64,000 nt of DNA from an uncultured Chitinophaga sp. (GCA_964404825.1 CAYOLQ010000002.1:325-64324); one strand, 5' to 3'. Counted from the first letter of the stretch, positions 19,171-35,600 are shown. Translations and numbers: made by a program. Notes: generated from the sequence alone by a model not told the origin.

Positions 19171-22100
19171 ATGCAAGGGGGAATTGCCCGGGCTCTTAAT
19201 ATTGAAAAAAATGAACAATCAAGTGTTTTCATTCTGATTATTCAATCTGTTTTTATTGGATTTTTTGCTGGTTCCTTTGATGTTGGCGCTCAATCTTTGT
19301 TTCTTAGTGTTTACGAAGCTTCTCTTATTCCAAAAGCATTTGTTTTATCGGGGGTCGTGGGGATAATTATTACTTCGGTTTATACCAGACTTCAGGCCCG
19401 GATGAAGTTTTCCGGTTTTGCACTTATAAACTATATTTTTATTGCATTAATAACCCTTTTGCTGAGACTGGGGTTTGAATTCACAGATGATAAACGTCTT
19501 GTTTTTGCCGTTTTTGTAATGATGGGTCCTCTGACAATCATCAGCTTTCTGGGTTTCTGGGGAACGGTTGGTCGATTATATACTCTCAGGCAGGGTAAAA
19601 GACTTTTTGGGTTGATTGATACCGGACAAATATTAGGCATCATTATTGTTTCCTTTGCCATACCTGTGCTGATTACTTTACATTTTAAAGTGCTGAATAC
19701 CCTCCTCGTAGGCTCGGTAAGTATAATTCTGGCTTTGCTTTTACAGATTATTATCACAAACCGTTTTAGTTTTCAAAAAGTTGAACAGAAATCCGAGATT
19801 AAGGACAATTTCTTAAGCCTTTTTAAAAATCATTACACCCTTCTGATGGCCTTGTTTATTGTGTTTTCAGTCGTTGCAGCCTTTTTTGTTCACTTTTCTT
19901 TTCTTACTGTACTTGAGAGCAACTATCCGGATCCTAATGCTCTTGCTTCATTTCTGGGAGCTTTCATGGGTACTCTGACTATTTTCACCATTCTGATTAA
20001 GACATTTGTGTACGGCAGAATTATGAAAACATATGGGCTGAAACTTGCTCTCATCATATCTCCTGTATTGCTCTGCCTGTTTACATTTATTGCCGCCATT
20101 ATAGGAAGCATTTATGGTTATACAATAGCATCAGCTAGTTTTACTTTCTTTTTCCTGCTTATTGTCCTCAGCAAACTTTTTGCTAAAAGTCTTAAAGACT
20201 CAATTGAAGTCCCCGCATCAAAAATATTATATCAGTCTCTCGATGCAGGTATCAGGTATAATGTGCAGGCAAGGATAGACGGTACTGTAAATGAACTGGC
20301 TGCTTTTTCTTCCGGATTACTGCTTGCCGGTCTTGGTTTGATTGCTTTTGTGAAAATCATACATTTCTCATGGTTTCTGCTTTTTATTCTCATTATATGG
20401 GCATATGTTGGAGCCAGGCTATATGCTGCGTATAAGGTGTCACTTGGGTCATCCCTTGAGAAATTTCAGAAACTTTCCATGGATGGACATTCCGAACTAT
20501 CTGTTACTGAAAAAATATTACCCGGAACAAGTGATCCTGCTAAAGTTTCTGCTGTTCTTGAATTCGCTCCCCAATCCTGGAATGGATATATATCAAAAAA
20601 CTTCAATAGCTTGTTCAAAGAGAATGATAAGATACGTTCAATGACCTTCTCGATCGTCGATGATTTGGATTTGAAAGAAAAAGGAGAACAACTTGAGAAA
20701 TACAGTAAGGATTTAACCGCCGCTCAAAGGTCCCGTTTGAAAGTAATGATGCAAAGGTTCAGAATTGATAGTAAAAAAGCGGGTGAAGAAGAGATAAGAG
20801 AATTATTAAAAAGCGATAATCCGGATGACAGGAAAAAAGGACTGATTATTATTACTGAGAAAAGTGACCCTAAATATTTTCCCAGAATAGTTCCCATGTT
20901 CCGCGATCCATCACCTTCCGTTAGAATTAGTGCAATCAGATCTGCGGGTATGTTGAATCGCAAGGACTTTGTGACCTATCTGATTGATATGCTTGAGGAC
21001 CCGGGATACTACTCCTATGCTTTTAATGCTTTGGCATCTATGAGCGATGCAATTCTGGAAAATCTTGAACATGGGTTTCATAAAACAGGAATTACAGACA
21101 AGGGCATGATAAGGATAACCCGCATTGTTGTATCCATTGGAACTCCCGAAGCGGCTACATACCTGTTCAGAAAGCTGGATCACTTTAACCGGAATGTTTT
21201 TTCATCCGCTGTCAAAGGGATTCAAAAAATCGGTATCACTCCGGATGAAAATGAAAAGTCAAAGATATTCTCTGCCCTTTACAAGATTTGCGGAATAAAT
21301 GCATGGAACCTTACAGCCAGGTATAGTCTCAGAGATTTTGAGGCAGGGGCTGAGCTGGCAATTGCCCTGGACGAAGAAATCTCAGAGAATTATGATCTGA
21401 TTTATTCGCTTCTGTCAATCGCATATGATCCATCTACAGTTTTTCACATTCGAAAAAACCTTGAAAGCGGAACTTCTGAAGGTATTGGTTTTGCTATTGA
21501 GCTTCTGGACCTTTTCGTGGATGAGCCTGTTAAGCCATTTCTCTTCCCCTTACTGGATGATTCGCCGGTTTCTGAAAAGGTTAGACTACTTCAGTCGGAA
21601 TACCCGGTTGAACCGATGAAGCCTGAGCAATTATTAACTTCTATTATTAACAGAGATTACAATCAGATAAATCCTTATACCCGGCTTAGTGCCATCCATG
21701 CACTTAACCGTATTGAAGGATATTTACCCGGTAAAGACCTTGTTGCACAAATGTTCAATTCCGATCCGCTTCTAAGAGAGGAAGCCTCAGCCATGGTATA
21801 CAAATTGGATACTAAATTATACTCGGAAGTTCTGAGACGCTTACCGGTGAGCTATAAACTATCAGTAGAAGAATTTTTACGATCAGCCGGAACCGAAGAA
21901 GAAAGCGGACATTTCAGAAAATTCAGGTACCTCAGGGCAATGGAAATATTCAGTAATTTTAGAAACCATCAATTACTGGATATTGCAAGGAAATTTGAAT
22001 TGCATAAATTTGAACAAAATGAAGATCTGCCTGCAAGGAATTTTTTCAAGCCCAACCAGATACTTCTTTTGGTTGAAGGAAGATTACACATAGAAACAGG

Positions 22101-22305
22101 GAATGGTGATCTGAATTTCGTTAGTGGAGATTTACTTGATTCATCACAGTTTATTAATCCCGACAATCGATTTGCAATTATTAAGGAAGGAACCCGTGTA
22201 CGAATTATGTTACTTGAGAAATCCTGCTTGCAGGAATTAATTTTTGACGATGAAAACTCATTTTTCCCGCTTGCTGAATTGCTGTCAGGCGTGAAAAATA
22301 CTTAA
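19171..22305 (+). CDS. 12-TM transporter-like domain (MFS or nucleotide-transporter-like) fused to HEAT repeats and a C-terminal cNMP-binding-like domain
   Basis: 1044 aa. Residues 1-430 form about 12 hydrophobic helices. Residues 540-900 carry HEAT/PBS-lyase-like repeats (DNPDDRKKGL..., FRDPSPSVRISAIRSAG). The last ~130 aa have a beta-barrel pattern resembling a cyclic-nucleotide-binding fold. Confidence 0.6.
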   Translation: MQGGIARALNIEKNEQSSVFILIIQSVFIGFFAGSFDVGAQSLFLSVYEASLIPKAFVLSGVVGIIITSVYTRLQARMKFSGFALINYIFIALITLLLRLGFEFTDDKRLVFAVFVMMGPLTIISFLGFWGTVGRLYTLRQGKRLFGLIDTGQILGIIIVSFAIPVLITLHFKVLNTLLVGSVSIILALLLQIIITNRFSFQKVEQKSEIKDNFLSLFKNHYTLLMALFIVFSVVAAFFVHFSFLTVLESNYPDPNALASFLGAFMGTLTIFTILIKTFVYGRIMKTYGLKLALIISPVLLCLFTFIAAIIGSIYGYTIASASFTFFFLLIVLSKLFAKSLKDSIEVPASKILYQSLDAGIRYNVQARIDGTVNELAAFSSGLLLAGLGLIAFVKIIHFSWFLLFILIIWAYVGARLYAAYKVSLGSSLEKFQKLSMDGHSELSVTEKILPGTSDPAKVSAVLEFAPQSWNGYISKNFNSLFKENDKIRSMTFSIVDDLDLKEKGEQLEKYSKDLTAAQRSRLKVMMQRFRIDSKKAGEEEIRELLKSDNPDDRKKGLIIITEKSDPKYFPRIVPMFRDPSPSVRISAIRSAGMLNRKDFVTYLIDMLEDPGYYSYAFNALASMSDAILENLEHGFHKTGITDKGMIRITRIVVSIGTPEAATYLFRKLDHFNRNVFSSAVKGIQKIGITPDENEKSKIFSALYKICGINAWNLTARYSLRDFEAGAELAIALDEEISENYDLIYSLLSIAYDPSTVFHIRKNLESGTSEGIGFAIELLDLFVDEPVKPFLFPLLDDSPVSEKVRLLQSEYPVEPMKPEQLLTSIINRDYNQINPYTRLSAIHALNRIEGYLPGKDLVAQMFNSDPLLREEASAMVYKLDTKLYSEVLRRLPVSYKLSVEEFLRSAGTEEESGHFRKFRYLRAMEIFSNFRNHQLLDIARKFELHKFEQNEDLPARNFFKPNQILLLVEGRLHIETGNGDLNFVSGDLLDSSQFINPDNRFAIIKEGTRVRIMLLEKSCLQELIFDDENSFFPLAELLSGVKNT

Positions 22306-22326: not shown

Positions 22327-24372
22327 ATGGATAAGCGCACAACAATTTTCAAACAACTAATCTTCAATGTAGTCCTTCCGGCTATATTGGGGCTTTTGGT
22401 ACTCGGGATTTTAAACTATACGCATACCAAAAGTATCCTTCTGGATTCTAATAAAACCAAAAATCAGATACTTACTGATGAAATAAAACTCATTCTTGAA
22501 ATGAGAGATATGGCTCTGGATATTCTCGAGGAGAGTCTTGATGCAAAAATGAAAGCCTACAGTGAAAATCTGATTAATAATTACTTGGAGAAAACTGACG
22601 GAATTCATAGTGTTGATCTGGACCAGATACGAACTAAACTTGGGATGAACCCTGACTTTGAAGATATTTACATAATCAATAAAATGGGAATTGTCGTTAA
22701 TACAACATTCGAAAACGACAGAAATCTTAACCTTTTTAGTTTTGGTGCAGAACATAAAACTCTTTTGGAGACAGTTTTTTCCGGTGGCGTTTTTGTGAGC
22801 GAGCGCTTTGGCGTGGAGAGTCAGACCAAACGGTTACGAAAATTCACCTATCAACCCAGCCTGGACGGTAAATATATTATCGAACTGGGTATTTATTCCT
22901 CTACTGCCGATACTATAATTCAATCTGTAAATAAGCGTATCAACGATCTTTCCACAAAGGTGCAGAGCATTGTTTCAGTGGATCTATTCATTGGACTGGA
23001 TGCTCCATTTTCTTTAAATAAGTCGGCAAGCATTGAAGATGAGCACCTGGGTCTGTTTAAAAACGTTCTCACCACCGGAAAATCATATGAATTCACTGAA
23101 GAGAAAGACGGAAAGCTCTACCATTATGAGTTCATTTACATGAATCGTAAAAACACCCATCTTTACAAGGAATCAGTTATAAGGATTGTTTCAGATCGTT
23201 CGGACGACAGGGCTTTGCTAAGGAAAGAATTAATGAAGTTCTTTATAATTTTTGGAATCATTATACTGGTTGTTGTTATTCTTATATACAGGAAAACGAA
23301 AGTTATTACAGATCCTGTCAAAAACCTTCTTGAAAAGGTCATCCGGATTAGTGACGGACATATGAATGAGAGGGCTGATGTGGTTGGAAATAACGAAATA
23401 GCCTCATTATCCGAACAGTTCAACAGGATGATTGAACAATTGGAAAGTTATTATAATGAATTGGAGGAAAAGGTAAGAGAGCGTACAGCTGAGATCATGG
23501 CTCAGAAAGAAGAAATCGAAGCTCAGAGAGACTCCATTCAGGAACAGAGAAATATACTTTCCGATATCAACCGATCCCTGCAAAAAGCCTATCTTGAAAT
23601 CGAAGAGCAAAAAAAGCATATCGAAGATAGTATTCATTATGCACGAAGAATTCAGAACGCAATTCTCCCACCCGACGAATTTGTGTCCACCCTGCTTCCT
23701 GATTCATTCATTCTTTATAAACCTAAAGACATTGTGAGCGGAGACTTTTACTGGATGGCTCAGAAGGATGGACAGGCACTGGTAGCTGCGGTAGACTGCA
23801 CAGGCCATGGTGTTCCGGGGGCGTTTATGTCAATCGTTGGGAATAATCAGCTTAACTTTGCTGTAAATGTGAAAGGAAGTCTTCGTCCTGATGAAATTCT
23901 GAATGCTCTTAACGAGGGAGTTACGAAATCTCTCCGTCAGACCAGGCTTAGCTCCTCTGTAAAGGATGGAATGGATATCTCTCTTATAAGTATTGACTTT
24001 AAAGATTTAAAGCTTAACTATGCCGGTGGGTATAATCCTTTGTTCCTTATCCGTGATAATGAATTAATTACTGTAAAAGCTGATAAGTTTCCCATCGGAG
24101 GTTACATGGGAGAAAAACTGAGGGATTTTACCAATAATGAAATGGATATTAAAAAGGGCGATGTTTTATATCTTTTCTCCGATGGATATTCGGATCAATT
24201 CGGGGGATCGGATGATTCAAAGTTCCTTATAAGAAGATTTCGTGAACTCCTCTTAAAAATACATAATGAACCTATGAATGAGCAAAAGGAAATCCTTAAC
24301 CAGATACATGATGACTGGAGAGGAAATTCTGTTCAGATCGATGATATTCTGGTAATTGGAATTCGCATCTGA
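22327..24372 (+). CDS. membrane sensor with extracytoplasmic domain, HAMP, coiled coil and PP2C/SpoIIE-family phosphatase
   Basis: 681 aa. TM1 (residues ~12-32), a ~270-aa periplasmic segment, TM2 (FFIIFGIIILVVVILIY), HAMP-like linker and coiled coil, then PP2C motifs (SGDFYW, DCTGHGVPGA, FSDGYSDQFGG, DDILVIGIRI). Confidence 0.8.
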   Translation: MDKRTTIFKQLIFNVVLPAILGLLVLGILNYTHTKSILLDSNKTKNQILTDEIKLILEMRDMALDILEESLDAKMKAYSENLINNYLEKTDGIHSVDLDQIRTKLGMNPDFEDIYIINKMGIVVNTTFENDRNLNLFSFGAEHKTLLETVFSGGVFVSERFGVESQTKRLRKFTYQPSLDGKYIIELGIYSSTADTIIQSVNKRINDLSTKVQSIVSVDLFIGLDAPFSLNKSASIEDEHLGLFKNVLTTGKSYEFTEEKDGKLYHYEFIYMNRKNTHLYKESVIRIVSDRSDDRALLRKELMKFFIIFGIIILVVVILIYRKTKVITDPVKNLLEKVIRISDGHMNERADVVGNNEIASLSEQFNRMIEQLESYYNELEEKVRERTAEIMAQKEEIEAQRDSIQEQRNILSDINRSLQKAYLEIEEQKKHIEDSIHYARRIQNAILPPDEFVSTLLPDSFILYKPKDIVSGDFYWMAQKDGQALVAAVDCTGHGVPGAFMSIVGNNQLNFAVNVKGSLRPDEILNALNEGVTKSLRQTRLSSSVKDGMDISLISIDFKDLKLNYAGGYNPLFLIRDNELITVKADKFPIGGYMGEKLRDFTNNEMDIKKGDVLYLFSDGYSDQFGGSDDSKFLIRRFRELLLKIHNEPMNEQKEILNQIHDDWRGNSVQIDDILVIGIRI

Positions 24373-24403: not shown

Positions 24404-27400
24404 ATGACCGGTTCCAGCCAGACGATAATTCAGAACATTAATCCCTTTCCCGGGTTACGACCCTTTACCAGCGAAGAAGCACATCTTTTCTTTGGCAGAG
24501 AAGGGCAGGTAGATGAGATTATCGGCAATCTGACGAAAAACCGGTTTATTGCAGTAGTAGGTGCATCCGGAAGTGGTAAATCTTCACTGATATATTGCGG
24601 TGTAATTCCTGCTCTCATTAATTCTGTTAAGGGGTCAACTGCTAAGGATTGGCTAATAATTAATACCCGCCCGGGTAATTCTCCTCTGAACAGTTTACTT
24701 AATGACATTTCCGAGAGTTCAAATACGAAGATCGAAAGTATAAATCCAACCGAATTATTTTCTTCCGAAAAGGGAGTTCTTAACCTGATTGTAAAAGCTG
24801 CCGGTAATAAGAAAAATATTCTTCTCATGGTCGACCAGTTTGAAGAAATTTTTCGGTTCAGTAAAATGGGAGATCCGTCCGGCAGTAAGGAAAATTCAGA
24901 TTTATATGTCAGTTTTATCGTTAATGCCGTAAAACAAACTTCGGTTCCGGTTTATGTTGTAATCACCATGCGATCCGATTTTATTGGCGAATGTTCCAGA
25001 TTTCAGGATTTTACCGCTCTTATAAACCAGAGTAATTATCTGCTTCCCAGAATGACAACAAATGATTTCCGGAAAGTAATTCAGGGTCCGGTGAAAGTAG
25101 CCGGAGCTGAAATTGACCCGGTTCTTGAAGATAAACTACTGTCAGATCTCGGAGATAACCCCGACCAGTTACCCGTATTGCAGCATGTACTTATGCGTAC
25201 CTGGGATTACTGGAAATTACACAACGATATTACAAAGCCGCTTTCTGTATCAGATTATGAGGCAGTGGGCCGAATTGAAAAGGCACTTTCGGAGCATGCC
25301 AATGAGGCATATGATGAATTAAATGAAAGAGAGAAAATTATTTGTGAGAGTATCTTTCGGACTCTTACCGAAAAGGGAGGTGATAACAGAGGCGTTCGTC
25401 GTCCTACAAAGATTAGCCAATTGGCAGCAATTGCCTTGGCCGATACTGAAGAAGTAACCCGGATTATTGAAATTTTCAGAGCTCCCGGCCGTTCTTTTCT
25501 TGTGCCGGGATCCAATATTAAACTGAGCAAAGATTCGGTTATTGATATCTCCCATGAATCCTTTATGAGAATATGGGAAAGACTGAGAGCCTGGGTTGAC
25601 GAAGAGGCCAACGCCGTTCAGATGTACAAAAGATTAGCAGAATCTGCAGCACTTTTCCAGGCCGGAAGAACCAGCTTATGGAGGCCTCCGGATCTGCAAC
25701 TCGCGCTTACCTGGAGAGATAAAACCAACCCTAGTTTAACCTGGGCAGAACGTCATAATCCGGCATTCGAAAGAACAATGGTTTTTCTGGAAACCAGCGA
25801 AAATGAATATAGTAAAGAAGAAGAGAATAAACTTCGTTTGCAGAAGAGGCAATTACGCAGAACCCGAATTTTCGCCCTTGTGCTTGGAGGTGCTGCAATT
25901 ATTTCTATCGCATTGGTGGTTTGGACTCAGGAGTTGCGTGTAAGAGCTGAAGAAGAATTCGAGCGTGCAGAAGAACAAAGAAGTATTGCTGAAGACAGGA
26001 CTGCCGAAGCCAATAACCAGAGGCTTTTGGCAGAAAAAGCAGCTACCGAAGCTCAGAATCAAAGAAATATTGCGGAAGAATCTTCCAGAATAGCTGAGGA
26101 ACGCAGAGTTGAAGCTGAAGCAAATGCCAGAGAAGCAAGGAGACAGGAAGCAATAGCACAAAACAACCTTTCAGAAGCAAACAGGCAGAGAAAAATTGCA
26201 CTCGATAATGAACAGGAAGCAAATAATCAGAAAGTGCAGGCGGAAAACGCAAGGGTTGAGGCATTTCAGCGAAGGATGCTATCCACAGCCAAATCTATGG
26301 CTGTAAAATCTATCCAGATTAGTAACGATGCGAACCTGAAATCGCTGATGGCATATCAGGCTTTTCTGTTTAATGAAAAATACAACGGAATAGAACATGA
26401 TGTGGATATTTATTCAAGCCTCTATCAATCATTAATAACGCTTCGGGGCAAGGATTTCAACATATTATTGGGACATGATAATGCCGTCCGTTCTGCGGTT
26501 TTTATTCCCGGAACCTCCACCCTTTTAAGTGCCGGCAGTGACGGAAAAATCCTCAAAAGGGATATATACGATGTTGATAAAAAATGGGAAGTAATCGCTG
26601 AGGGAATTGGTGTCATCGAGAAAATACAGACTTCATTCAATGGTAAGTATCTGGCTGTAGCAACAAACCGGGGTGGTATGAATCTTTTCAATCTGGAAAC
26701 CGGGAATAGTAATTTTAAAGTTCTCACAGGGGAAGATGAGAATATTCGAACCATGGTAATAGGTCCGGATAATAAAACAATGTTTACAGCCGGTCTGAAA
26801 CCTGTTATCGAATATTGGGATCTGGAGTCAGGTTCTCATTCCAGACTCATAGAAACAAACACACGTGTAAACACTCTTGCACTTTCACCAGATGGCGGCA
26901 TCCTTGCAGGCGGAACCAAAGATGGCCGGTTAATTATCTGGAGAGTTAAAGGAACCACAATTTCCCAGGAAATTTATAAGGATGATAACCAAAGGTCTAT
27001 TCACTCAATTGCCTTCAGCCCCGATGGCTCTTACCTTGCTTGCGGAAATATTGATGGCGAAGTTCTTCTTTTTTCTGCTGATTCATTCAGTCTGATTACA
27101 CTTTTAACCGGACATTCAGCCAGAGTTACGGATTTGGGATTCAGTCCCGGAAGTAAAACATTAGCGTCATCCTCATATGATGGAAAAGTATTGTTCTGGG
27201 AACTTTCAAATCTGACTAATCCACCAATTGTTATGGATGATAACTCAGGTTTTGTTTTTTCCCTTGCATTTAGTCCGGATGGTAAAAATCTGCTAAGCTC
27301 AAGTGCAGAAGAACCCCGGCTCATAATCCGGCCGGCAATGGCAAGCATGATGGCAATGCAGGTTTGCGGTCTTGTAAGCAGAAACTTTACAACAGATGAA

Positions 27401-27493
27401 TGGAAAACATACGTAGGAACAGATATTCCGTATGAAAAATCCTGTCCTGTTGAAGCTAAATTAGAAATTGGAATAAGAAAAGATGAAAAGTAA
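24404..27493 (+). CDS. STAND-class P-loop NTPase with a single TM helix, repetitive coiled coil and C-terminal WD40 repeats
   Basis: 1029 aa. N-terminal NPFPGLRPFTSEEAHLFFGRE, Walker A GASGSGKSS and Walker B LLMVDQFEE. TM helix IFALVLGGAAIISIALVVW is preceded by an RR-rich stretch. It is followed by ~110 aa of EA/QR-rich coiled coil and then about 7 WD40-like units (GHDNAVRS, GSDGKI, GTKDGRLIIW, GNIDGEVLLF, SSYDGKVLFW). Confidence 0.8.
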   Translation: MTGSSQTIIQNINPFPGLRPFTSEEAHLFFGREGQVDEIIGNLTKNRFIAVVGASGSGKSSLIYCGVIPALINSVKGSTAKDWLIINTRPGNSPLNSLLNDISESSNTKIESINPTELFSSEKGVLNLIVKAAGNKKNILLMVDQFEEIFRFSKMGDPSGSKENSDLYVSFIVNAVKQTSVPVYVVITMRSDFIGECSRFQDFTALINQSNYLLPRMTTNDFRKVIQGPVKVAGAEIDPVLEDKLLSDLGDNPDQLPVLQHVLMRTWDYWKLHNDITKPLSVSDYEAVGRIEKALSEHANEAYDELNEREKIICESIFRTLTEKGGDNRGVRRPTKISQLAAIALADTEEVTRIIEIFRAPGRSFLVPGSNIKLSKDSVIDISHESFMRIWERLRAWVDEEANAVQMYKRLAESAALFQAGRTSLWRPPDLQLALTWRDKTNPSLTWAERHNPAFERTMVFLETSENEYSKEEENKLRLQKRQLRRTRIFALVLGGAAIISIALVVWTQELRVRAEEEFERAEEQRSIAEDRTAEANNQRLLAEKAATEAQNQRNIAEESSRIAEERRVEAEANAREARRQEAIAQNNLSEANRQRKIALDNEQEANNQKVQAENARVEAFQRRMLSTAKSMAVKSIQISNDANLKSLMAYQAFLFNEKYNGIEHDVDIYSSLYQSLITLRGKDFNILLGHDNAVRSAVFIPGTSTLLSAGSDGKILKRDIYDVDKKWEVIAEGIGVIEKIQTSFNGKYLAVATNRGGMNLFNLETGNSNFKVLTGEDENIRTMVIGPDNKTMFTAGLKPVIEYWDLESGSHSRLIETNTRVNTLALSPDGGILAGGTKDGRLIIWRVKGTTISQEIYKDDNQRSIHSIAFSPDGSYLACGNIDGEVLLFSADSFSLITLLTGHSARVTDLGFSPGSKTLASSSYDGKVLFWELSNLTNPPIVMDDNSGFVFSLAFSPDGKNLLSSSAEEPRLIIRPAMASMMAMQVCGLVSRNFTTDEWKTYVGTDIPYEKSCPVEAKLEIGIRKDEK

Positions 27494-28499
27494 ACTATAC
27501 ATAATAATCGGTTTCCTTTTCTCATTAGTGGGATCAGGCTACCTGAATGCGCAGGAAAATTGCGCTTTGAACCTTAAGCGGGCTCAGGAACTTTTTAATT
27601 CAGGGCAGATTGAAACAATTCCCTCACTTATTGAACCCTGCATTTTATCTGGTTTTACGCGGGAAGAAAAAGTTCTTGCATACAAATTGCTGATAAACGC
27701 ATATGTTTTCGATGACAACCTTGAAAATGCCGAAGTCATAATGAATAATTTCCTTAAAAAATACCCTGAGTATGAAATTATCAGCACCGACCCTTCTGAG
27801 TTTGTTAACCTGATGCAGCAATTTGATAACAAGCCAAGATTTTCAATCGGAATTATTGCAGGGGGTACATATTCCGTAATAAGGGTAATAGAACCTGTAA
27901 ATACAAGCCCTTTGCCTGATAATTATGGTTATTATAATACTTCTGGCGTAGGATATCATGCAGGATTTGCCCTTATTAAAAATCTGAATTCAAATATTGA
28001 ACTCTGTCTGGAAGCTGATTTTAAAAACACAGTATTTGATCACTACCTTGATCCGGACGGAAATACCTCCAATTCGTATTACGAATCACAGCAACTTATT
28101 AATTTACCATTTTCAGCAACCTATACCATAGGTAAAGGGAAGTATAAACCCTATGCCCGTTTAGGTTTTAATACAGGTTTTTTGATTAGTTCAGGAGCAG
28201 ATTTAGTAACAGTGCCCGGTACTGAGAGTCCCAGAATTTCCAATATGGATAACCGCGAAATACTTAATTTCTGGGGAGTTATTGGTGGAGGTGTAAAACT
28301 GAAAGTTCCTAAAGCATACATCTTTCTGGATGTAAGATACAATCTTGGCTTAAATAATCAGGTAAATAATAACGGACGGAGAAATACTCAGTCAGATGAA
28401 CTAATGCTGTATCAGACCAGAGATGATGATTTTTATCACGATGATTTGAATTTCAGCATAGGAATCGTGAGGACGATATACCATCCCAAAAAAAAGTAG
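27483..28499 (+). CDS. secreted TPR-like domain fused to a PorT-like outer-membrane beta-barrel
   Basis: 338 aa. Signal peptide ending LNAQ, a ~90-aa helical TPR-like region, then alternating beta-strand sequence to the C-terminus. The start overlaps the STAND gene by 11 nt. Confidence 0.55.
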   Translation: MKSKLYIIIGFLFSLVGSGYLNAQENCALNLKRAQELFNSGQIETIPSLIEPCILSGFTREEKVLAYKLLINAYVFDDNLENAEVIMNNFLKKYPEYEIISTDPSEFVNLMQQFDNKPRFSIGIIAGGTYSVIRVIEPVNTSPLPDNYGYYNTSGVGYHAGFALIKNLNSNIELCLEADFKNTVFDHYLDPDGNTSNSYYESQQLINLPFSATYTIGKGKYKPYARLGFNTGFLISSGADLVTVPGTESPRISNMDNREILNFWGVIGGGVKLKVPKAYIFLDVRYNLGLNNQVNNNGRRNTQSDELMLYQTRDDDFYHDDLNFSIGIVRTIYHPKKK

Positions 28500-28523: not shown

Positions 28524-29663
28524 ATGAAAAATCTTATCTGCATACTAACTCTTCTGATTATTCTGATGGCCTGTCAAAAGGAGGTGTCAGATTTGCAGAC
28601 ACATTATTTTGTAAAATTTTATGGTGATGCCCTGGATGACACCGGGGTTGATGTTGAACTTGCCCCTGATGGCGGATATGTTATTGCCGGAACAACAGTT
28701 CGCCCAACTGGAGATACAGACATTATGCTGATAATCGTGAATAATTATGGTATTCAGAAAACCCAGACTGTTTATTACGGGGAAGAAGGAGATGAAATTT
28801 GTACAGGTTTATTGTTGGTTGATGATGGATATGTTATTACCGGATCGGTCACAAACGGGGGTGAAGAGATTGTATTGCTTGTTAAAATCGGAACAGATGG
28901 TGTTTTAGACTGGACTTCTTCCTGGCAGAATCCCGGTAGGGGAACAGACATAGTATTGATAAACAATAATATTGTTGTTTCGGGGTATCTGCTAAATGCA
29001 TTTGGAGTAAAACGCCCGATGATTCTAACATCAGATGCTCTTGGAAATAAGATCGATTTGTATTCTCCTACCGATAATCCGGGTGATTATTTTACTGCTG
29101 TTCAAACCAGAAACAATCAGATCTTCGGATTTGGAACCAGTATAAATACTGCCATAAATAATAATATGTTTATTGCAGGACCTGCCATTGAACCCAGTTT
29201 TTTTAATCTTTCCGGAAATGAAGCATCTGCAAGAATTATTAAGGGAAGTACGGGTGGTTTTTTCATTATCGGCACTACTGATCCTGTTAGCTCTGGAACC
29301 AACCAGATAATAGTTAAGAAAGTAAATGATGACTTCTCGGAAGACTTAACTTTTAATGCAAATCCTATCGGGAATAATGCTGATTTTCGCGGAGTTGATA
29401 TACAGGAAATGGAGGATGGAAGGATAGCAGTTCTCGGAGATAAAACTTTTTCAAAAGACACAGATATTGTATTATATCTTTTAAACCCTGACGGTTCAAT
29501 CCTTTCTTCAAAAATTTATGGAAGAACCGGTAATCAGTCAGCATCCGCAGTTAAATCAACACCAGACGGTGGTCTTATCATTCTGGGTAGCAATCAGCAG
29601 GAAAAAACTAACAGTATGATTACCCTGATAAAGACCGATAAGGATGGTAATATTTGGGAATAG
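28524..29663 (+). CDS. lipoprotein with repeated beta-propeller-like blades
   Basis: 379 aa. Lipobox LMAC. Recurrent DGGY(V/L)I.G...D..L(I/V)K.D..G units (at least 5). Confidence 0.5.
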   Translation: MKNLICILTLLIILMACQKEVSDLQTHYFVKFYGDALDDTGVDVELAPDGGYVIAGTTVRPTGDTDIMLIIVNNYGIQKTQTVYYGEEGDEICTGLLLVDDGYVITGSVTNGGEEIVLLVKIGTDGVLDWTSSWQNPGRGTDIVLINNNIVVSGYLLNAFGVKRPMILTSDALGNKIDLYSPTDNPGDYFTAVQTRNNQIFGFGTSINTAINNNMFIAGPAIEPSFFNLSGNEASARIIKGSTGGFFIIGTTDPVSSGTNQIIVKKVNDDFSEDLTFNANPIGNNADFRGVDIQEMEDGRIAVLGDKTFSKDTDIVLYLLNPDGSILSSKIYGRTGNQSASAVKSTPDGGLIILGSNQQEKTNSMITLIKTDKDGNIWE

Positions 29664-29669
29664 GAAAAA

Positions 29670-32600
29670 ATGAAAGGAAACTTTACCGTAATGAAAGCAC
29701 TTAAGAAACTAGTAATATGCGGCCTGATTTTATCTGTTCCATTGTTTTCATATGGAGCAGGGAGTGTCAGTATTTCCGGAACTATTACTACCAGTAATTC
29801 GGAACAGAATATTATTGATGGCGGACAAACTATAATCCTCAGTCTTACTGATGCTACATGGGCGGCATCCATCGAGGATAGTTTATCAAGCTGGCAATCG
29901 GCATTTTCTTCATCAGGTAGCTGGAGCGAAATAAGCTCTGCACTTTCCACTTCAGATTTTTCAAGGGTAAACGATACAGCTTTTGTAATTATCCTTCCGG
30001 CTTCTTCTTTATATGCGATTTGGGCAAATGAAGTAGTAACCCTTACCATTCCTAACTCACTGCTTGCAACCGGTAGTGCTCTCAATACCCCAACATTTAC
30101 CATTATAAATCAATCTCCAATTATCAGTATTAATGCCGCTTCAGGCATTCTGACTAATAACAATGAATCGTTTATAATTGCAGGTTTACAGACAATCATT
30201 ATAGATGTAGCAAGAGATAATTGGGCTACAAGTTTGGGCGCTAATAATGCAGTGACTACTGCTTTTATAAATGCTATTGATGGCGATCAAAGCTGGTCAG
30301 CTGTTGATGGTCCCTTATCTTATGCTAATATCAGTCGCACTTCTGAAACCCGGGTAACTATTACCCTGCCAGCCGCTGCTACATATGTAATAACTGAAAA
30401 TGAAACAGTTACATTCTCATTTCCGGGTAGCTCATACAGAAACAGTTCAGTTAAGGCTGTCAGCGATCCTACAGTAACAATATATGATTTAAATCCGGTT
30501 GTAACTTTAAGCGGTACTGCTTTGCCAACTCTTACGGAATCAAATATCCGGGCAGGTGGATATACTCTGATTTATGATGTGATCTACGATACATGGGCTA
30601 CAAACCTGGATGAAAATAATGCAGCAACCACGGAATTTCTTGAAGGATTAACAGGAAATCTGGACTGGCTCACGGTTACTGATGTGCTTATTTTTTCAAA
30701 TCTTACAAGGAATTCTGCCAGCAGAGTAACATTGTTGCTTCCGGCAGTACCAAGCTATGCCATAAGCTCAAATGAAACTGTCTCTGCAAGTATACCTGCC
30801 TCTGCTTTTAACGGCATATCCGGTGCATCTGCCGGAACAGCATTTACCGTTTCTAACCAACAGGCAGGCACTAATGTTACATGGTCAACCGGTACTTCAA
30901 CTATTGCTGAGGCTCAGGTTCGTTCCGGAGTTCCTCCACTTACTCTGACTCTTGATTTGACCAGCAGCGACAGCTGGATTACGAGTATACCAACCCTTAA
31001 AACTAATTTTATTGCTGCACTCAGTAATGGAGCAGGAAGCGAGTGGGATACAAAGGTTCTTCCAAATATTTCAGTAAACAGATCGTCAGCTACAAGATTG
31101 GTTATATCGTTTACTGCAGCAGCTAGTTTTGATATAACTAGCCTTCGGACAATAACTTACTCAATTTCCGATAATTCACTTATAGCTTCGAGCGGGGCAT
31201 CAGTGACTCCGGCTACCTCAGGTTTCTCAATTACTCCTTTACCAGCAAGCGTAAGCATTAGTCCCGGCAGCATAAGCGAAGCCGGTCTGAACGGAGGAAC
31301 AATCGATCTGACTATTTCTGAAGATGTATTTACTGATCCGGCATCTGTAGCTGTAAATTATTTTTCCATCAGCGCACCGGCGGGTGCAAGTATAAGCACC
31401 GTTACGAACAGAACTTCAACCGGAGTTCGTCTGACTTTGGCCTACGAGGGGGATATTGATACAAATGGTAGTATTCAGATTACCATAGTAAACGGTCTCG
31501 CCGGAGGGGGCACACTAATTTCCAACTCAACAACCGTCGTGGCAGTCATTGAACCGGTAATAACTGGTGTATCAATTCCTAATCAAACATATAAAATAAG
31601 TGATGCGGTTCCGGTAACCATAACTGTACAGGATGACGGAGGCCAGATTTTTACCCTGACATCAGGTTCTGTTGGAGGTCGCTCCTTATCCGGATTTTCA
31701 CGCATAAACTCTACAACCTACTCTGCCAGTTTTACAGTTCTTTCCGGAACAACAGATTACCCAGCATTATCCGATATTCCGGTTTCAGTTCAGTTGCAGA
31801 TATCCGGTCGTCCGGGAAATCTGTTTAATACACCGATAAGTCAGATTGCTGACCTGATTGATGCCAATCCCCCTGTAATAAATTCGTATCAGGCTCTAGG
31901 AGGCGTTCATAAAGCTGGTGATATAATTCAGCTGATTGTTAGTGCCGATCAGGCGGGTTACACAATAGATAATACACAGACCAGTATTAATAGCATTCCG
32001 ATTACTAACCCTTCTTTCGCATTTATCAGTGAAGCTGGAGGAACGTATTATTTAAGCTACAAGATTTCGGTAAATGATAACGATGTACTTACTCCGGTAG
32101 CACTTAGCGGACAAATTGTACTTAAAGATCCTGCAGGAAACAGCAGTCTGGTCAAAAATGTTACTGCTGTATCAGGCGCTTTTTCAATTGATGCACATTC
32201 TCCGATTATCTCCGGAGTTACAGCTCCGGATAGTATTTATATAAGCGGGGAAACACTTATTCTTACTATTAATAGCGATGGTGCGGGTTACAGTTTATCC
32301 CCCGAAACCTTTATAAATGGTATATCCTTCAGTTCGGGCAGGTTTTCATTAAATGGTACCGGACCGGTATATACCCTGAATTATCCTGTACTGGCAACTG
32401 ATGCCGAAGTTAGTGCCGGAAATCTTCCGGTGAATATCGTTTTAAAGGATGTTGCCGGAAACAAATCAAACCCTTTAACATCCTTTTCGAATACTGTTTC
32501 TGTCTTTACCACAAAACCCACTGCTTTTATCAGTGGAAATGCTTCAATTTGTAAGGGTGATTCAGCAATTCTTTATGTAAGTTTAACGGGAAAAAGCAAA

Positions 32601-35600
32601 TGGAATATTGTTGTGTCAAACGGATCTTCTACCAGTAATTACAATAACATAAGCAGTTCACCTTTCAGTTTTAAGATTGGCCCTGGCGTAAATACAAATT
32701 ATACAGTACAGTCAATTACCGATAAAAACGGTCTTACCAATACAGGAACAGGCACTGCAAGTATTATTGTTAATATTGGAACACCGGTAAATATTACTCC
32801 TGTTGGCAGTGCTTACAATCTGCTTGCATCACCTGTTCAATTATCAGCAGTTCCTTCAGGAGGATTATTCAGTGGACCGGGAGTTGTAAGCTCAGTTAAT
32901 AAATTCTATCCCGATATTGCCGGAGTTCCCAACTCTCCCCACACTATTATTTACACCTATACAAATGGATTTGGATGTAAAAGCTATGACAGCATATCTA
33001 TTGGTGTGGTTGAAGCCAGAGGGGGAATTGAACTGGATGATTTATACTGTTACAACGATGAACCTTTTCTGGCAGCAGCAATTACTGATAGTACAGAAAT
33101 TATTGGACGGTTTGAACTTTTCTTTAAAGAGGCCATTGTACAAGAGGGTAACGGAATTCATGATAACGGAAACAATACAGCATTAATAACGCCATCTTTA
33201 TTAAACCCGGGCGAGTATCTTCTCAGATATAAGTATTTTCTAAAAGATACTCTTACTCTTGAAGAGAACTTCATAATAGAATTTATTGAGCAACCTAAAT
33301 TTCTCGGATTCCCCGATCCTGCCACTATCTGTCAGAACGAAGTCCCGCTAAACCTTCAGGGTGACGCCCGGAGAGGGGAGTTCACAGGTTTAGGAATAAC
33401 AGGAAACAGCGCGAGTGGATTTAAATTTGATCCGTCCGTTACCGGGCATGGAAGATATACAATTACGTATACTGACTCAACAGTCAACAGATGCAAAAAT
33501 CAGATTAGCAAAGATATTACCGTATACTTTGTGCCGGATATGGGATTTACTGCAAGTGATAGTTGTGTTTTTTCATTCAATCCCGGAAGCGAAATATTTT
33601 TTAATAACACTACTGTTGAAAAGGATTCAATCAAATCCTGGTTCTGGAATTTCGATGATGTTAATTCGGGTTCCAGTAACTTTAGCACACTTCAGTCTCC
33701 ATCCCACTTTTTCAATAAGTCGGGGAAATATTCAATATCACTTATTGATACCACAACCAATGGCTGTCCTGATCGTCACGAAATCACATTTGATTTTGGC
33801 GATAAACCAACCGGTGGTTTTGAAGTCGTTAACAAATGCTTCACCGTTGGAACCCTGACAGAGTTTAATAGTTTAACCAGTTCTAATGATGGAATTAAAG
33901 ATTATTACTGGAAAATTCATTTGGAGGACGGTATTCAGGTTGATACGCTAATATCATCTGAGACATATAAATTCCAGTTTTTACAGGAAGGGATATACCT
34001 TATTGAACATATTGTAACCTCGAATACCAATTGTACTCTGGCATTATCCGATTCCATAATTCTGAAACCTACAATTGTGGTAAAAAAAGGGATCCCCCAT
34101 AATGAGCTGGATCTTTTTGAAGGAGGCTGGAGTAGTAGTAACTCAATGGATATGGCATATCCGGGGTTAAGCTGGAGATGGGGAATCCCCGATTTCATAA
34201 GTCTGGCCGGAGGTACGGAAAAAGCATGGTATACTCAAAGAAGCAATTCTATGCTGCCGGAGCTTTCTTCTCTGATAAGTTCATGTTTCAACATTAGTGA
34301 ACTCGACAGACCAATGATTAAAATGGATATCTTCCGGAACTTTGGCAGCACTCAGGATGCTGCTATTCTTGAAACTTCAACCGATAACGGAGAAAACTGG
34401 AATGCGTTGGGTAACCCTGGTGATGGCATTAACTGGTACAGTGATTATCAGACTACAAACTTTGCTTTCAATAAAAACTATGGCTGGGCTAATTCAAGCG
34501 GTTCAGTACCCGATACATCATGGATTGAATCGCGTCATGTTCTTGATCCGGTAATTGGTTCATCAAATCTTCAGTTCCGGCTTGTCTTTGGTGCAGAGGA
34601 AAGCACTGTTCAGGATTATGAGGGATTTGCATTTCGTAATATTACTATTGGTGAAAGGAACAGATTCAGTGTTCTCGAACACTTTGTAAATACTACCTCG
34701 GTTAATCCTGTTAAGGATAAGGTAAAATCTGCTAATATCAAGGTAAATGCACTCTATAAAAAGGATTTTTTGTATAAAGATTTCGTAAAACTTGAGTACC
34801 ATACACGCTTCCCTTCAGTCAATGATCCTATTAACCTTTTTAACCGCGACGTACCCGGAGCAAGAGCGTATTATTATGGTGTCACAACAGTGCCTTATTC
34901 CTTACTGGACGGGGGAGACAGAACCGGCAGGCGCTTTGACTTTTCCGATACAAAATTTGAACCCAGGGAAATCGACATAAACCTTAGATCTCTGGTTGAT
35001 CCCGCCTTAAAAATAAGCGTTATTGCGCAGGAAAACGGAGATGATCTTAATGTTGGCGTTAAGCTTACAGCTCTGGAGAACCTGCCGGCAGAAGAAAGGG
35101 TGTTATATGTTGTACTTTATGAAACTATGGTCTCCGGTATTGTAGCTGAAAATGGCGAATTGCAGTTTCAGAATGTTGTGCGTAATATGATTCCTGATGC
35201 AGGGGGAACAACAATATATCAGGCGTTTTCTGCTACACCTCAAGATACTACGCAACTTGAATATAATTTTTCAGCCAGCTTAAATAATCTGGATAAGGAT
35301 TATATCCGTGTAGCAGTTTATTTCCAGAACGATTTTTCCGGCGAGATTTATCAGGCAGCTTTATCTGACTATAGCCGGTCGATTGGGACAAAAGTTAATC
35401 CTGAAATAAAGTTTGAGAACGGTTTATCCGTTTATCCGAACCCCGCTGCTGATTTTGTTGAAGTAAATATTTCCGGTGCTGTTAGCAGACCTTCACAACT
35501 GGAATTTTTTGACCAGCTTGGACGAAAGGTTCATAGTGAAACTATTCCATCCTATGAAAACAGAATAATAATAAATACCTCAGGTTTTACCAGGGGAATT

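Follow-up and report, generated by a model that had tools for sequence, protein, structure and literature searches.

The gene at positions 24404–27493 (+) of the window, the 64,000-nucleotide stretch of DNA from an uncultured Chitinophaga sp. analysed here, encodes a 1029-aa protein that on balance probably acts as a bitopic inner-membrane switch and, within a conserved module spanning the envelope, as the central transducer. Its predicted architecture joins an nSTAND1 NTPase, a single transmembrane (TM) helix, a long stalk and a WD40 propeller. The reading frame is the sole long ORF at the locus in the ORF list and its translation. The comparisons below draw on 120 full-length close homologs (46–77% identity to the window protein), on 148 representatives of 50%-identity clusters, and on the STAND homolog loci in 80 genomes of many phyla, to which all counts given out of 80 refer.

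By its profile match the gene product is a member of the nSTAND1 clade of STAND NTPases. The Pfam family PF20703 (nSTAND1) covers the NTPase (NOD) module at aa 14–421 (24443–25666, +; predicted to be cytoplasmic) with a score of 319.4 bits (E 6.3e-95; cut-off 27.1), and the alignment spans model positions 1–374 of 379. An earlier note on this DNA had assigned the N-terminal domain to the STAND class from a conserved lead-in and Walker motifs, and the HMM check bears this out. The lead-in motifs NPFPGLRPF and FFGRE begin at aa 13 and aa 29; Walker A (GASGSGKS, G53–S60; 24560–24583, +) is an intact P-loop of the form GxxxxGK[ST] that includes K59, and Walker B (ILLMVDQFEE, I139–E148; 24818–24847, +) follows the pattern hhhhD, with D144, and then acidic residues. 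G53, S55–S61 and D144–E148 are invariant in the 45 homologs aligned. The AF2 model of the N-terminal part is alpha/beta, followed by helical modules. The N-terminal effector is indeed absent, as the same note had held: Pfam found no effector domain fused to the protein, and there is no space for one at the N-terminus because a gap of only 31 nt separates the STAND ATG from the end of the preceding gene.

Between the NOD and the hydrophobic helix lies a juxtamembrane linker (aa 422–488; 25667–25867, +), defined by the homolog alignment and an HMM and closing with the basic cluster KRQLRRTR. This linker is better conserved than any other part of the protein (72% mean identity versus 57% for the NOD), its length of 67 aa is invariant among the homologs, and an HMM of aa 405–488 matches 60 of the 80 genome homologs, including those from Acidobacteriota, Planctomycetota, cyanobacteria and Proteobacteria. 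The linker is followed by the only hydrophobic segment of the protein, IFALVLGGAAIISIALVVW (aa 489–507; 25868–25924, +), with a mean Kyte-Doolittle value of 2.61, the best other 19-mer reaching 1.56. The single helix proposed earlier is thus retained, its site having been placed slightly off at residues 495–515. The positive charges on its N-terminal side are likewise present, with seven K/R in the 15 residues before the helix and three K/R plus five D/E after it. Taken as a single sequence the segment is only modestly significant, as 33 of 5000 shuffles of the window protein reach 2.61, and it is regarded as real because it is conserved across homologs. In each of the 120 close homologs a hydrophobic peak lies at this site, with more K/R on the N-terminal than on the C-terminal flank, and 117 have just one such segment; of the 148 cluster representatives, 146 carry a single TM segment and the same charge bias is seen in 144. 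The helix occurs in nearly every complete homolog from the 80 genomes, and the TM-bearing homologs belong to Bacteroidota, Acidobacteriota, Planctomycetota, Proteobacteria, cyanobacteria, Chloroflexota and Actinobacteria. Its hydrophobicity, length and position are kept while residue identities vary, G495 being invariant and A498 almost invariant among the 45 aligned homologs, and in the AF2 model it lies inside a continuous helix of aa 455–544. A distant relative carries, C-terminal of the TM helix, a 3keto-disac_hyd domain, a type of domain that is typically extracytoplasmic, which speaks for the C-terminal half lying outside.

The topology was derived from Kyte-Doolittle hydropathy and the positive-inside rule, both of them heuristics. 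On this basis we infer an N-in/C-out orientation, which places the NOD in the cytoplasm and both stalk and propeller in the periplasm, because a single family-wide TM helix with a strong positive-inside bias separates them. To our knowledge all characterised STAND sensors are cytoplasmic, and in that company a transmembrane STAND is unusual, as had been pointed out; within this nSTAND1 clade, however, it is the standard arrangement and not a peculiarity of the window gene.

The predicted periplasmic part begins with a helical stalk (aa 508–640) and neck helices (aa 641–689; together 25925–26470, +), in the place where the earlier note had expected a coiled coil. Alanine occupies each seventh residue from A515 to A620, over 16 heptads, in a composition rich in A, E, Q and R, and the AF2 model places helices at aa 455–544 and 552–638 with a low-confidence break at aa 545–551. 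From the end of the TM helix to G690, 108 of the 120 homologs have 182 aa (range 174–185), a near-invariant length that is maintained despite a stalk identity of only 42% across the 120. Should the Ala-heptad stalk fold back on itself as an antiparallel hairpin, the propeller would lie near the inner and not the outer membrane. The propeller itself (aa 690–975; 26471–27328, +) is seven-bladed and predicted to be periplasmic, in keeping with the roughly seven WD40 repeats read earlier from the sequence. WD40 families match over aa ~690–970 (PF00400, 104 bits, plus beta-propeller families in Pfam), the AF2 model has about 28 strands in aa 695–977 at a pLDDT of about 90, and Foldseek aligns it with seven-bladed WD40 structures at TM-scores of 0.8–0.9 and an rmsd of 2.2–2.9 Å. 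Its length is 282–291 aa in 120 of 120 homologs, with 39% identity. The model of the whole protein (pLDDT 79) shows a TM-traversing helix, a long helical stalk and the seven-bladed propeller.

The protein closes with a C-terminal cap (aa 976–1016; 27329–27451, +) recognised in the homolog alignment by the motif C-x(4-6)-RNxTxxEW...Y..C, which was found in Actinobacteria homologs too. Both cysteines are present in 87 of 119 homologs, neither in 28 and one alone in 4, these being raw counts, uncorrected for phylogeny; the paired residues probably form a disulfide. Periplasmic disulfides may, however, be scarce in many anaerobic Bacteroidales. The fixed stalk length, the joint retention or loss of the Cys pair and the adjoining gene for an outer-membrane (OM) barrel favour a periplasmic propeller, and together with the conserved helix and its charge bias they support the NTPase-in/WD40-out arrangement of the earlier note, which stays a prediction.

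The genes downstream, which the earlier note left out, encode envelope proteins and provide the most informative context. The first (27483–28499, +), whose initial 11 nt overlap the end of the STAND gene with its stop codon, encodes an outer-membrane protein with a signal peptide, a helical N-domain of about 90 aa and an eight-stranded OmpA/OmpW-like barrel (PF13568; AF2 pLDDT 89.5; Foldseek matches to OmpA, OmpW, NspA and OmpX). No Pfam family, STN included, covers the N-domain, in which C27 and C53 are invariant and which is predicted to be periplasmic; it is homologous to the N-extension of the STAND-adjacent TonB-dependent receptors at two loci, L037 and L039 (hhalign 97.5%, E 5e-12 and 1e-11). 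Gene adjacency is what suggests a contact between the WD40 propeller and this N-domain. The barrel gene adjoins the STAND gene in 26/80 loci, and the adjacency also holds in a reverse look-up, in which the most distant intact barrel homolog (P0162) lies directly downstream of an nSTAND1 gene and another (P0163) sits in a decayed copy of the cluster. Next comes a gene (28524–29663, +) for a lipoprotein with the lipobox LMAC that is probably a beta-propeller, as judged from weak delta-60 and DUF5122 repeat matches; it is kept downstream of the barrel gene in 19/80 loci. The last gene (29670–35669, +) encodes a secreted protein of 1999 aa that has a signal peptide, a PKD domain (PKD_4) and a T9SS C-terminal sorting domain (Por_Secre_tail), and a comparable giant Por_Secre_tail gene closes the cluster at four further loci (L001, L003, L004 and L086).

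Upstream of the STAND gene are two genes whose products are candidates for the cytoplasmic side. The more distant one (19171–22305, +) encodes an NTT/TLC-type inner-membrane transporter (about 10–12 TM helices by hydropathy, aa 1–420) that continues into HEAT repeats and a weak cNMP-binding-like C-terminus. The TLC (E 1e-7) and HEAT_2 (E 2e-10) matches are above the Pfam cut-offs, and the cNMP-binding domain (cNBD) is barely detectable (E 0.55 to PKG cNBDs). The HEAT repeats of the HEAT-cNMP protein described in the earlier note are therefore present, but its transporter half had been overlooked and its cNMP domain is only faint. Transporters of this NTT-HEAT(-cNBD) fusion type form a described family (Major et al. 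2017, PMC5381601), and members of the NTT family transport ATP or NAD (PMC5381601). An NTT-HEAT gene adjoins the STAND gene in 31/80 loci, Acidobacteriota included, some lineages keep only the HEAT part beside it, and in five Bacteroidales loci (L013, L016, L017, L022 and L054) NTT-HEAT and STAND occur alone, with no OM barrel nearby, so that the outer-membrane partner is either not obligatory or encoded elsewhere. The gene in between (22327–24372, +) encodes a two-TM sensor phosphatase with a periplasmic loop at aa ~34–296, a HAMP domain, a coiled coil and a SiaA-like SpoIIE/PP2C domain (Pfam HAMP and SpoIIE; partial NCBIfam SiaA match, E 9e-77), which confirms the PP2C phosphatase noted previously; it is found at 9/80 loci, all of them Bacteroidales-type. 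The suggestion that the output acts in trans through the neighbours gains support from this synteny, with the HEAT(-cNBD) tail of the transporter as the best candidate for a cytoplasmic partner or output and the HAMP-PP2C phosphatase as a second candidate in this lineage.

The conserved Bacteroidota cluster thus reads NTT-HEAT transporter, HAMP-PP2C, STAND, OM barrel, lipoprotein propeller and T9SS giant, and it is conserved among the homolog loci while the flanking genes change. In the trans-envelope switch that we favour, the stalk would keep the propeller a defined distance away from the inner membrane, where it would engage the Cys-pair periplasmic N-domain of the co-encoded barrel, or of the TonB-dependent receptor in other lineages; the T9SS surface giant may join in, as may the lipoprotein propeller. 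A membrane between NOD and sensor would rule out the usual autoinhibition by folding back; without it the signal would have to cross by ligand-driven clustering or by a re-packing of the stalk/TM helices, which carry a small-residue G/A motif. By way of the juxtamembrane linker the signal would then enter the NOD, whose nucleotide state and oligomerisation would act on the cytoplasmic partners. The ancestral trans effector, a TIR-DUF4062 protein, would have been lost in this lineage. Signalling may run outside-in or inside-out.

The TIR connection leads to a different reading, in which the protein belongs to an envelope-surveillance immune system: the periplasmic propeller would detect a cue that derives from an invader, such as proteins of a phage's tail or ejection machinery, a toxin (bacteriocin or contact-dependent) or damage to the envelope. 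Oligomerisation of the NOD would follow and set off a toxic output, namely nucleotide or NAD loss via the NTT transporter, whose relatives transport ATP or NAD (PMC5381601), and TIR NADase activity in relatives. According to the accessible text of its defining paper, the nSTAND1 family was delineated amid counter-invader systems, as their central NTPase with fused effectors or effector-associated domains (PMC8195603). In the wider family the most widespread trans partner is a TIR-DUF4062 protein, since 42/80 loci, from various phyla, have a TIR_2-DUF4062 gene immediately upstream of the one for nSTAND1-TM; in Schlesneria (L075) TIR is fused N-terminally to the nSTAND1-TM protein, and distant relatives have long N-terminal extensions at the usual effector site. 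The TIR link gives the wider family an immune flavour. The window copy, on the other hand, has no TIR partner within the 64 kb, and PADLOC returned no relevant match for the cluster proteins, the neighbours of the STAND gene among them, beyond a 34-residue P-loop match to mad3 (E 6e-4). The locus does not look like a variable defence island or part of a mobile element, since the window flanks are housekeeping genes (obg, lplA, gyrB/gyrA-like, aroK, a flavodiiron gene, psd, cdsA and ftsH) and the gyrB-gyrA-aroK-NTT-STAND synteny is retained in several Bacteroidales lineages, down to 38% identity. The sensor, fixed in length and with 39% identity, is not hypervariable like those of typical defence STANDs, and the cluster includes the structural envelope genes for barrel, lipoprotein and T9SS cargo. 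An immune function for the window protein is therefore judged unlikely; housekeeping location and conserved sensor argue for a regulatory role, concerned with envelope or surface status, over phage defence.

The protein might instead be a structural or energising tether akin to TonB or TolA, with NTP turnover driving conformational cycles by which stalk and propeller hold or gate the barrel or aid surface assembly of the T9SS giant. As in TolA and TonB, an N-terminal inner-membrane anchor would be followed by a long periplasmic region of biased composition and fixed length and by a C-terminal globular domain of the kind that meets OM partners; the barrel, lipoprotein and T9SS cargo are co-encoded, and TonB-dependent receptors with the special N-extension are the partners in other lineages. 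TolA and TonB, however, have almost no cytoplasmic part and are energised by TolQR or ExbBD, whereas the NTPase of the window protein, predicted to be cytoplasmic, takes up 490 aa, and its cluster encodes nothing that resembles ExbB/ExbD or TolQ/TolR. STAND NTPases act as slow switches and not as motors, the cytoplasmic neighbours are of signalling type (HEAT-cNBD and HAMP-PP2C, with TIR in relatives), and OM genes are missing nearby in the lineages with NTT-HEAT and STAND only, all of which makes such a tether quite improbable. Hardly credible is a hydrophobic segment that does not span the membrane (a buried core helix, or a peripheral or re-entrant anchor) and a WD40 domain in the cytoplasm as in Apaf-1, a reading that could appeal to the cytoplasmic sensors of all characterised STANDs known to us, to the shuffling result and to the fact that membranes lie outside AF2's modelling, but that is opposed by the conserved segment with its N-side K/R cluster across phyla, by a modelled helix that is solvent-exposed, continuous with the stalk and unpacked against any domain, by the envelope proteins encoded by the partner genes, and by the covarying cysteines.

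The predicted transmembrane nSTAND1 protein can be regarded, from sequence and models, as a variation on known STAND NTPases. The nSTAND1 clade (PF20703; Kaur, Iyer, Burroughs and Aravind 2021) shares with it the NOD, with intact Walker A and B, and C-terminal WD40 repeats; relative to the family as presented in the accessible text of that paper, the window protein lacks an effector, is predicted to span the membrane and sits in a vertically conserved envelope cluster. Apaf-1 and NLR-type proteins also have a NOD followed by WD40, and full-length Apaf-1 is the first Foldseek match (global TM-score only 0.26, the propeller dominating the match). Apaf-1, however, is soluble, with two propellers that fold back to autoinhibit the NOD, whereas the window protein has one seven-bladed propeller that would be separated from the NOD by the membrane. 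The likeness to FecA/FecR/FecI is functional only: an OM barrel with a periplasmic N-extension is encoded beside an inner-membrane protein with one TM helix, which could read the extension with its periplasmic domain and would control the output with its cytoplasmic one. There is no homology; the N-extension of FecA is of a different kind from the helical Cys-pair domain of about 90 aa, the barrel here is small, eight-stranded and not a receptor, the inner-membrane partner is a STAND NTPase and not an anti-sigma factor, and the window cluster contains no sigma (including ECF) or anti-sigma genes. Receptor Ser/Thr kinases such as PknD of M. tuberculosis combine an enzyme in the cytoplasm with one TM helix and a beta-propeller sensor outside, the order also predicted for the window protein, but with a kinase in place of a STAND NTPase, an NHL-type propeller and no long stalk. 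The antiviral STANDs Avs and bNACHT (PMC13581612; bioRxiv 2022.07.19.500537) share the tripartite STAND logic, and TIR effectors occur in relatives of the window protein; they differ in being soluble, in having fused effectors, in their location in defence islands and in sensing phage proteins in the cytoplasm, and the window protein has no PADLOC match. The literature search found no paper describing the membrane-spanning nSTAND1 architecture or this cluster, and the searchable text held no published statement of a TM helix between nSTAND1 and the repeats.

Beyond the window gene, it is a tentative proposal that the effector-less nSTAND1 clade as a whole consists of transmembrane NLR-like receptors sensing extracytoplasmic cues, and that the Bacteroidota cluster is a domesticated version from which TIR was lost. 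If so, such receptors would make up between hundreds and thousands of clusters at 50% identity, spread over the seven groups listed above, with the repeats outside, one TM helix, the NOD inside and TIR fused or adjacent, that is, the topology of a Toll-like receptor combined with the switch of an NLR. The Bacteroidota cluster would then couple an OM barrel or TonB-dependent receptor, across the envelope, to a nucleotide transporter and a PP2C phosphatase.

The STAND gene is a single long ORF at window positions 24404-27493 (+) encoding 1029 amino acids, and since the preceding gene stops at 24372, no N-terminal addition to the protein is possible. The motifs quoted in the earlier note are all present, with NPFPGLRPF starting at aa 13, FFGRE at aa 29, Walker A at G53-ASGSGKS-60 and Walker B at I139-LLMVDQFEE-148, and the assignment to the STAND class made there is borne out by profile searching: aa 14-421 match nSTAND1 (PF20703, E 6.3e-95, 319 bits vs a cut-off of 27.1), and WD40 and beta-propeller families are matched at aa ~690-970 (Pfam). 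Judged by profile and motifs, the protein is a member of nSTAND1. When the NTPase module (NOD) was compared with the PDB by sequence search, only P-loop matches, to UvrA, were returned. On the opposite strand of the gene, ORFs of 118-164 aa at 27031-27525 (-), 24430-24828 (-) and 25255-25611 (-) are unsupported and most likely due to chance.

A Kyte-Doolittle scan locates the sole membrane-grade segment of the protein at aa 489-507 (IFALVLGGAAIISIALVVW), with a score of 2.61 compared with 1.56 for the runner-up 19-mer; as 33 of 5000 shuffles of the protein reach 2.61, the hydrophobicity signal is modest on its own. Among the close homologs (the 120 best matches, 46-77% identical, all ~1000-1050 aa and mostly from Bacteroidales MAGs), a hydrophobic peak occurs at aa 455-509 in all 120, and 117 have exactly one such segment. 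The basic N-terminal side that had been described for the helix is seen in the window protein (7 K/R within the 15 residues before it; 3 K/R and 5 D/E after it) and in every close homolog, the N flank being richer in K/R in 120/120 (mean 6.7 vs 2.8 on the C flank). When aa 1-520 were searched exhaustively (HMMER) against a set of 1.84 billion cluster representatives, 45,948 matched at E <= 1e-3, and 11,331 of them at E <= 1e-30; the best 148 full-length cluster representatives have exactly one hydrophobic segment in 146 cases and a greater N- than C-flank charge in 144. Similarly, at 80 loci with STAND homologs from species-representative genomes (L-numbers below), nearly all complete ORFs carry one helix ~60-90 aa past the nSTAND1 domain, and it is also found in proteins of only 23-35% identity from Acidobacteriota, Planctomycetota, Proteobacteria, cyanobacteria, Chloroflexota and Actinobacteria. 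The transmembrane (TM) helix, kept across homologs and phyla, therefore characterises the clade and is not a peculiarity of the window gene; the sequence downstream of it differs among homologs, consisting of WD40 repeats, TPRs, ankyrin repeats with a 3keto-disac_hyd domain, or unannotated sequence.

The topology predicted from these features is N-in/C-out. The reverse arrangement, N-out/C-in with a periplasmic NTPase supplied by an ATP/ADP-type transporter, is rejected for the lack of a signal peptide, the opposite charge bias and the demand that a 488-aa N-terminal domain be translocated, and an internal cleavable signal peptide is rejected for the lack of an AXA-type site past the helix. 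Truncated or split STAND ORFs were encountered at L024:9950-12430, L030:10001-11593, L048:9947-11275, L053:2412-3605 and L087:4299-6139, the last with a likewise truncated outer-membrane (OM) barrel; these loci may be decaying clusters or assembly errors.

The regions flanking the helix are under unequal constraint, as judged by mean identities relative to the window protein in alignments of 45 and of 120 homologs. The best-conserved region is the juxtamembrane linker (aa 422-488; 72%, with an invariant length of 67 aa), and an HMM of it matches 60/80 genome homologs across phyla; the corresponding values are 57% for the NOD (aa 14-421), 58% for the TM helix (G495 invariant and A498 nearly so), 42% for the stalk (aa 508-640), 39% for the WD40 region (aa 690-975, 282-291 aa long) and 45% for the C-terminal cap (aa 976-1016). 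The stalk is rich in E, R, Q and N, and has Ala at the same heptad position through 16 consecutive heptads, from A515 to A620. The distance from the end of the TM helix to G690, the first propeller residue, is 182 aa in 108 of the 120 homologs (range 174-185); length is thus much better kept than sequence, as expected of a spacer with a defined reach. The AF2 model (pLDDT 79) has one helix running through the membrane segment (aa 455-544), a low-confidence break (545-551) and a second helix (552-638), followed by two neck helices and a 7-bladed propeller (pLDDT ~90), and Foldseek places full-length Apaf-1 at the top, followed by 7-bladed WD40 domains (TM-scores 0.8-0.9). As a straight helix of 131 residues, at 0.15 nm per residue, the stalk would reach roughly 19-20 nm, which is near the width of the diderm periplasm; as a hairpin it would have half that reach.

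In raw TM-to-first-WD40 distances, a rough measure used because a whole-propeller HMM aligns the repeats out of register and yields negative distances, the spacer is ~47-57 aa in Actinobacteria homologs and 156-206 aa, rich in A/E/Q/R/K, in those of Bacteroidota and Acidobacteriota (L064, L071, L072, L073, L080 and L085 vs L013-L039). This difference is consistent with a stalk adapted to the diderm periplasm; against such a fit, cyanobacterial and Nitrosomonas homologs have short spacers too. The cap, whose Cys pair is C987 and C1014, has the motif C-x(4-6)-RNxTxxEW...Y..C, which also occurs in Actinobacteria homologs. Both Cys are present in 87 homologs, neither in 28 and one only in 4 (counts that ignore kinship), a pattern of joint presence and absence that would be expected of a disulfide.

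The strongest new evidence on the STAND protein is its neighbourhood, where it forms part of a cluster of six tightly packed genes on the + strand. Overlapping the STAND stop by 11 nt is the start of an outer-membrane protein (27483-28499), modelled (pLDDT 89.5) as a signal peptide, a four-to-five-helix N-domain with two invariant Cys (C27 and C53) and an 8-stranded barrel, with OmpA, OmpW, NspA and OmpX as the closest structures. In Mucilaginibacter, Sediminibacterium and an Acidobacteriota MAG, the STAND-adjacent gene encodes instead a ~878-aa TonB-dependent receptor (Plug and barrel). Compared by hhalign, the N-extensions of the Mucilaginibacter (L037; probability 97.5%, E 5e-12) and Acidobacteriota (L039; probability 97.4%, E 1e-11) receptors are homologous to the OM N-domain, Cys pair included. 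The N-termini of OM barrels and the N-extensions of such receptors face the periplasm, and thus a periplasm-facing domain stays with the STAND gene even where the type of barrel changes. In the reverse look-up, an nSTAND1-WD40 gene of the same cluster immediately precedes the gene for the most divergent barrel homolog that is intact (29% identity), and another barrel homolog lies within a decayed copy of the cluster. The domain, ~90 aa, helical and without a Pfam family, spans window 27552-27827 (OM protein aa 24-115), with further instances at L037:13042-13400, L029:13083-13470 and L039:8000-8334 (minus strand). It occurs on small 8-stranded barrels and full TonB-dependent receptors, in every case beside nSTAND1-TM-WD40 genes, and has the look of a periplasmic adaptor domain not yet described, one that the propeller or cap would be placed to touch.

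Downstream of the barrel gene are a lipoprotein (28524-29663), probably a beta-propeller, and a 1999-aa protein (29670-35669) with a signal peptide, a PKD domain and a T9SS sorting domain. The lipobox of the former, LMAC, is followed by QKEVSD, which resembles the Bacteroidota signal for lipoprotein surface export, so that from its sequence the protein might be surface-exposed instead of periplasmic. The only recognised parts of the latter are one PKD (aa ~1303-1371) and the C-terminal sorting domain, which leaves ~1800 aa unannotated; relatives' clusters end in equivalent but poorly conserved giants of 1450-2590 aa. Upstream of the STAND gene lie a phosphatase of HAMP-PP2C type with two TM segments and a periplasmic loop of ~260 aa (22327-24372) and an NTT/TLC-type transporter (19171-22305; ~10-12 TM segments) that continues into HEAT repeats and a tail faintly resembling a cNMP-binding domain. 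The transporter belongs to the family of NTT-HEAT(-cNBD) fusions described by Major et al. (2017, PMC5381601). Pfam detects no cNMP-binding domain in this protein even at E <= 1, and a PDB search gives a weak likeness to PKG cNBDs (E 0.55); the C-terminal 244 aa (window 21571-22302), where the literature predicts the cNBD, are barely detectable as such, and the domain may be degenerate or serve another ligand. The order of the cluster is repeated around STAND homologs of 71%, 51% and 47% identity with differing outer flanks. Over 18.4-36.9 kb, a sigma-70 scan, which does not cover Bacteroidota promoters, gave 58 promoters vs 50.8 in shuffles, and intrinsic terminators numbered 16 vs 13.9; being no higher than in shuffles, these counts are uninformative on operon structure.

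Counted over the 80 loci, the partners near the STAND gene are NTT-HEAT proteins at 31 (one of them directly downstream, in Acidobacteriota), the OM N-domain protein at 26, the lipoprotein at 19, PP2C at 9 (a Bacteroidales subset) and a recognisable giant at 7. At some Rikenella-type loci the transporter half of the NTT-HEAT partner comprises just 6 TM segments, joined to the HEAT part, and at others the partner is a soluble HEAT part alone. The earlier note had argued that, without a fused effector, the output must act in trans, and for the clade this proves right: directly upstream of STAND at 42/80 loci, in Bacteroidota, Acidobacteriota, Planctomycetota, cyanobacteria, Proteobacteria and Myxococcota, is a ~470-530-aa protein with TIR_2 and DUF4062 where domains are recognisable (L037:8429-9967, L039:8484-9986, L029:8462-9970, L019:8399-9937 and 38 further loci), the adjoining nSTAND1-TM genes being effector-less. 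In Schlesneria (L075), TIR is fused N-terminally to the nSTAND1-TM protein. The TIR-DUF4062 partner was not found in the 64-kb window (best tblastn E 0.7) and is likewise missing from the closest relatives of the window gene; it is probably the ancestral trans effector, lost in this lineage, which leaves NTT-HEAT and PP2C as output candidates. A signal would then pass from the stalk through the TM helix and juxtamembrane linker to the NOD, whose targets would be PP2C and/or the transporter's HEAT(-cNBD) tail. More speculatively, the ancestral system may have linked TIR products or NAD to a nucleotide transporter and its cNBD.

This TIR link among relatives keeps alive the main rival to a regulatory function, namely that the cluster has an immune origin or an immune role. 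In the window, the cluster is flanked on one side by obg, lipoate ligase, acyltransferase, gyrB- and gyrA-like genes and aroK, and on the other by a flavodiiron protein, psd, cdsA and ftsH, and several Bacteroidales lineages keep the order gyrB-gyrA-aroK-NTT-HEAT-STAND, even where the STAND proteins are only 38% identical. PADLOC gave no meaningful match for the cluster proteins (a P-loop match only) or for the TIR-DUF4062 relative, and the STAND protein is outside any PADLOC defence family. Together with the fixed-size, conserved propeller, the housekeeping flanks, kept synteny and negative PADLOC result argue for a vertically inherited regulatory module in the window's lineage. For a 259-aa ORF between the acyltransferase and gyrB-like genes (13105-13881, +), Pfam gives nothing at E <= 1e-5.

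The class to which the protein belongs is known, but the predicted topology, the envelope-spanning context and the activation mechanism that they imply are not. The STAND protein resembles Fec-type cell-surface signalling and the TolA/TonB families in logic only, and is a member of neither. A TM helix between nSTAND1 and the repeats goes unmentioned in the portions of text searched of PMC8195603, PMC7159879 and PMC13581612, the papers that define nSTAND1 and survey STAND diversity, and a passing remark elsewhere notes that some DGR-targeted NACHT proteins may carry periplasmic lectin domains (PMC10907252). In the literature searched, which does not cover all journals, so that absence is no proof, neither the cluster nor an nSTAND1 architecture with a TM helix was found described. 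Cultured carriers (Mucilaginibacter hurinus ZR32, Sediminibacterium goheungense DSM 28323 and Robiginitalea myxolifaciens) make the predictions directly testable.

The cluster suggests a trans-envelope pathway in Bacteroidota that had not been described before, gives the widespread, uncharacterised NTT-HEAT transporters a first functional context, and defines a new periplasmic N-domain common to small OM barrels and TonB-dependent receptors. STAND and NLR proteins are held to sense in the cytoplasm, and the accepted model of activation needs a sensor folded back on the NTPase; with a membrane between sensor and NOD, such fold-back autoinhibition is inapplicable. If the topology is true, NLR-type sensing would be extended to the periplasm and cell surface, and a large conserved clade with sensor and NTPase split by the membrane would need another activation mechanism, for which the simplest alternative would be that of receptor kinases or TLRs, namely clustering or a re-packing of helices.
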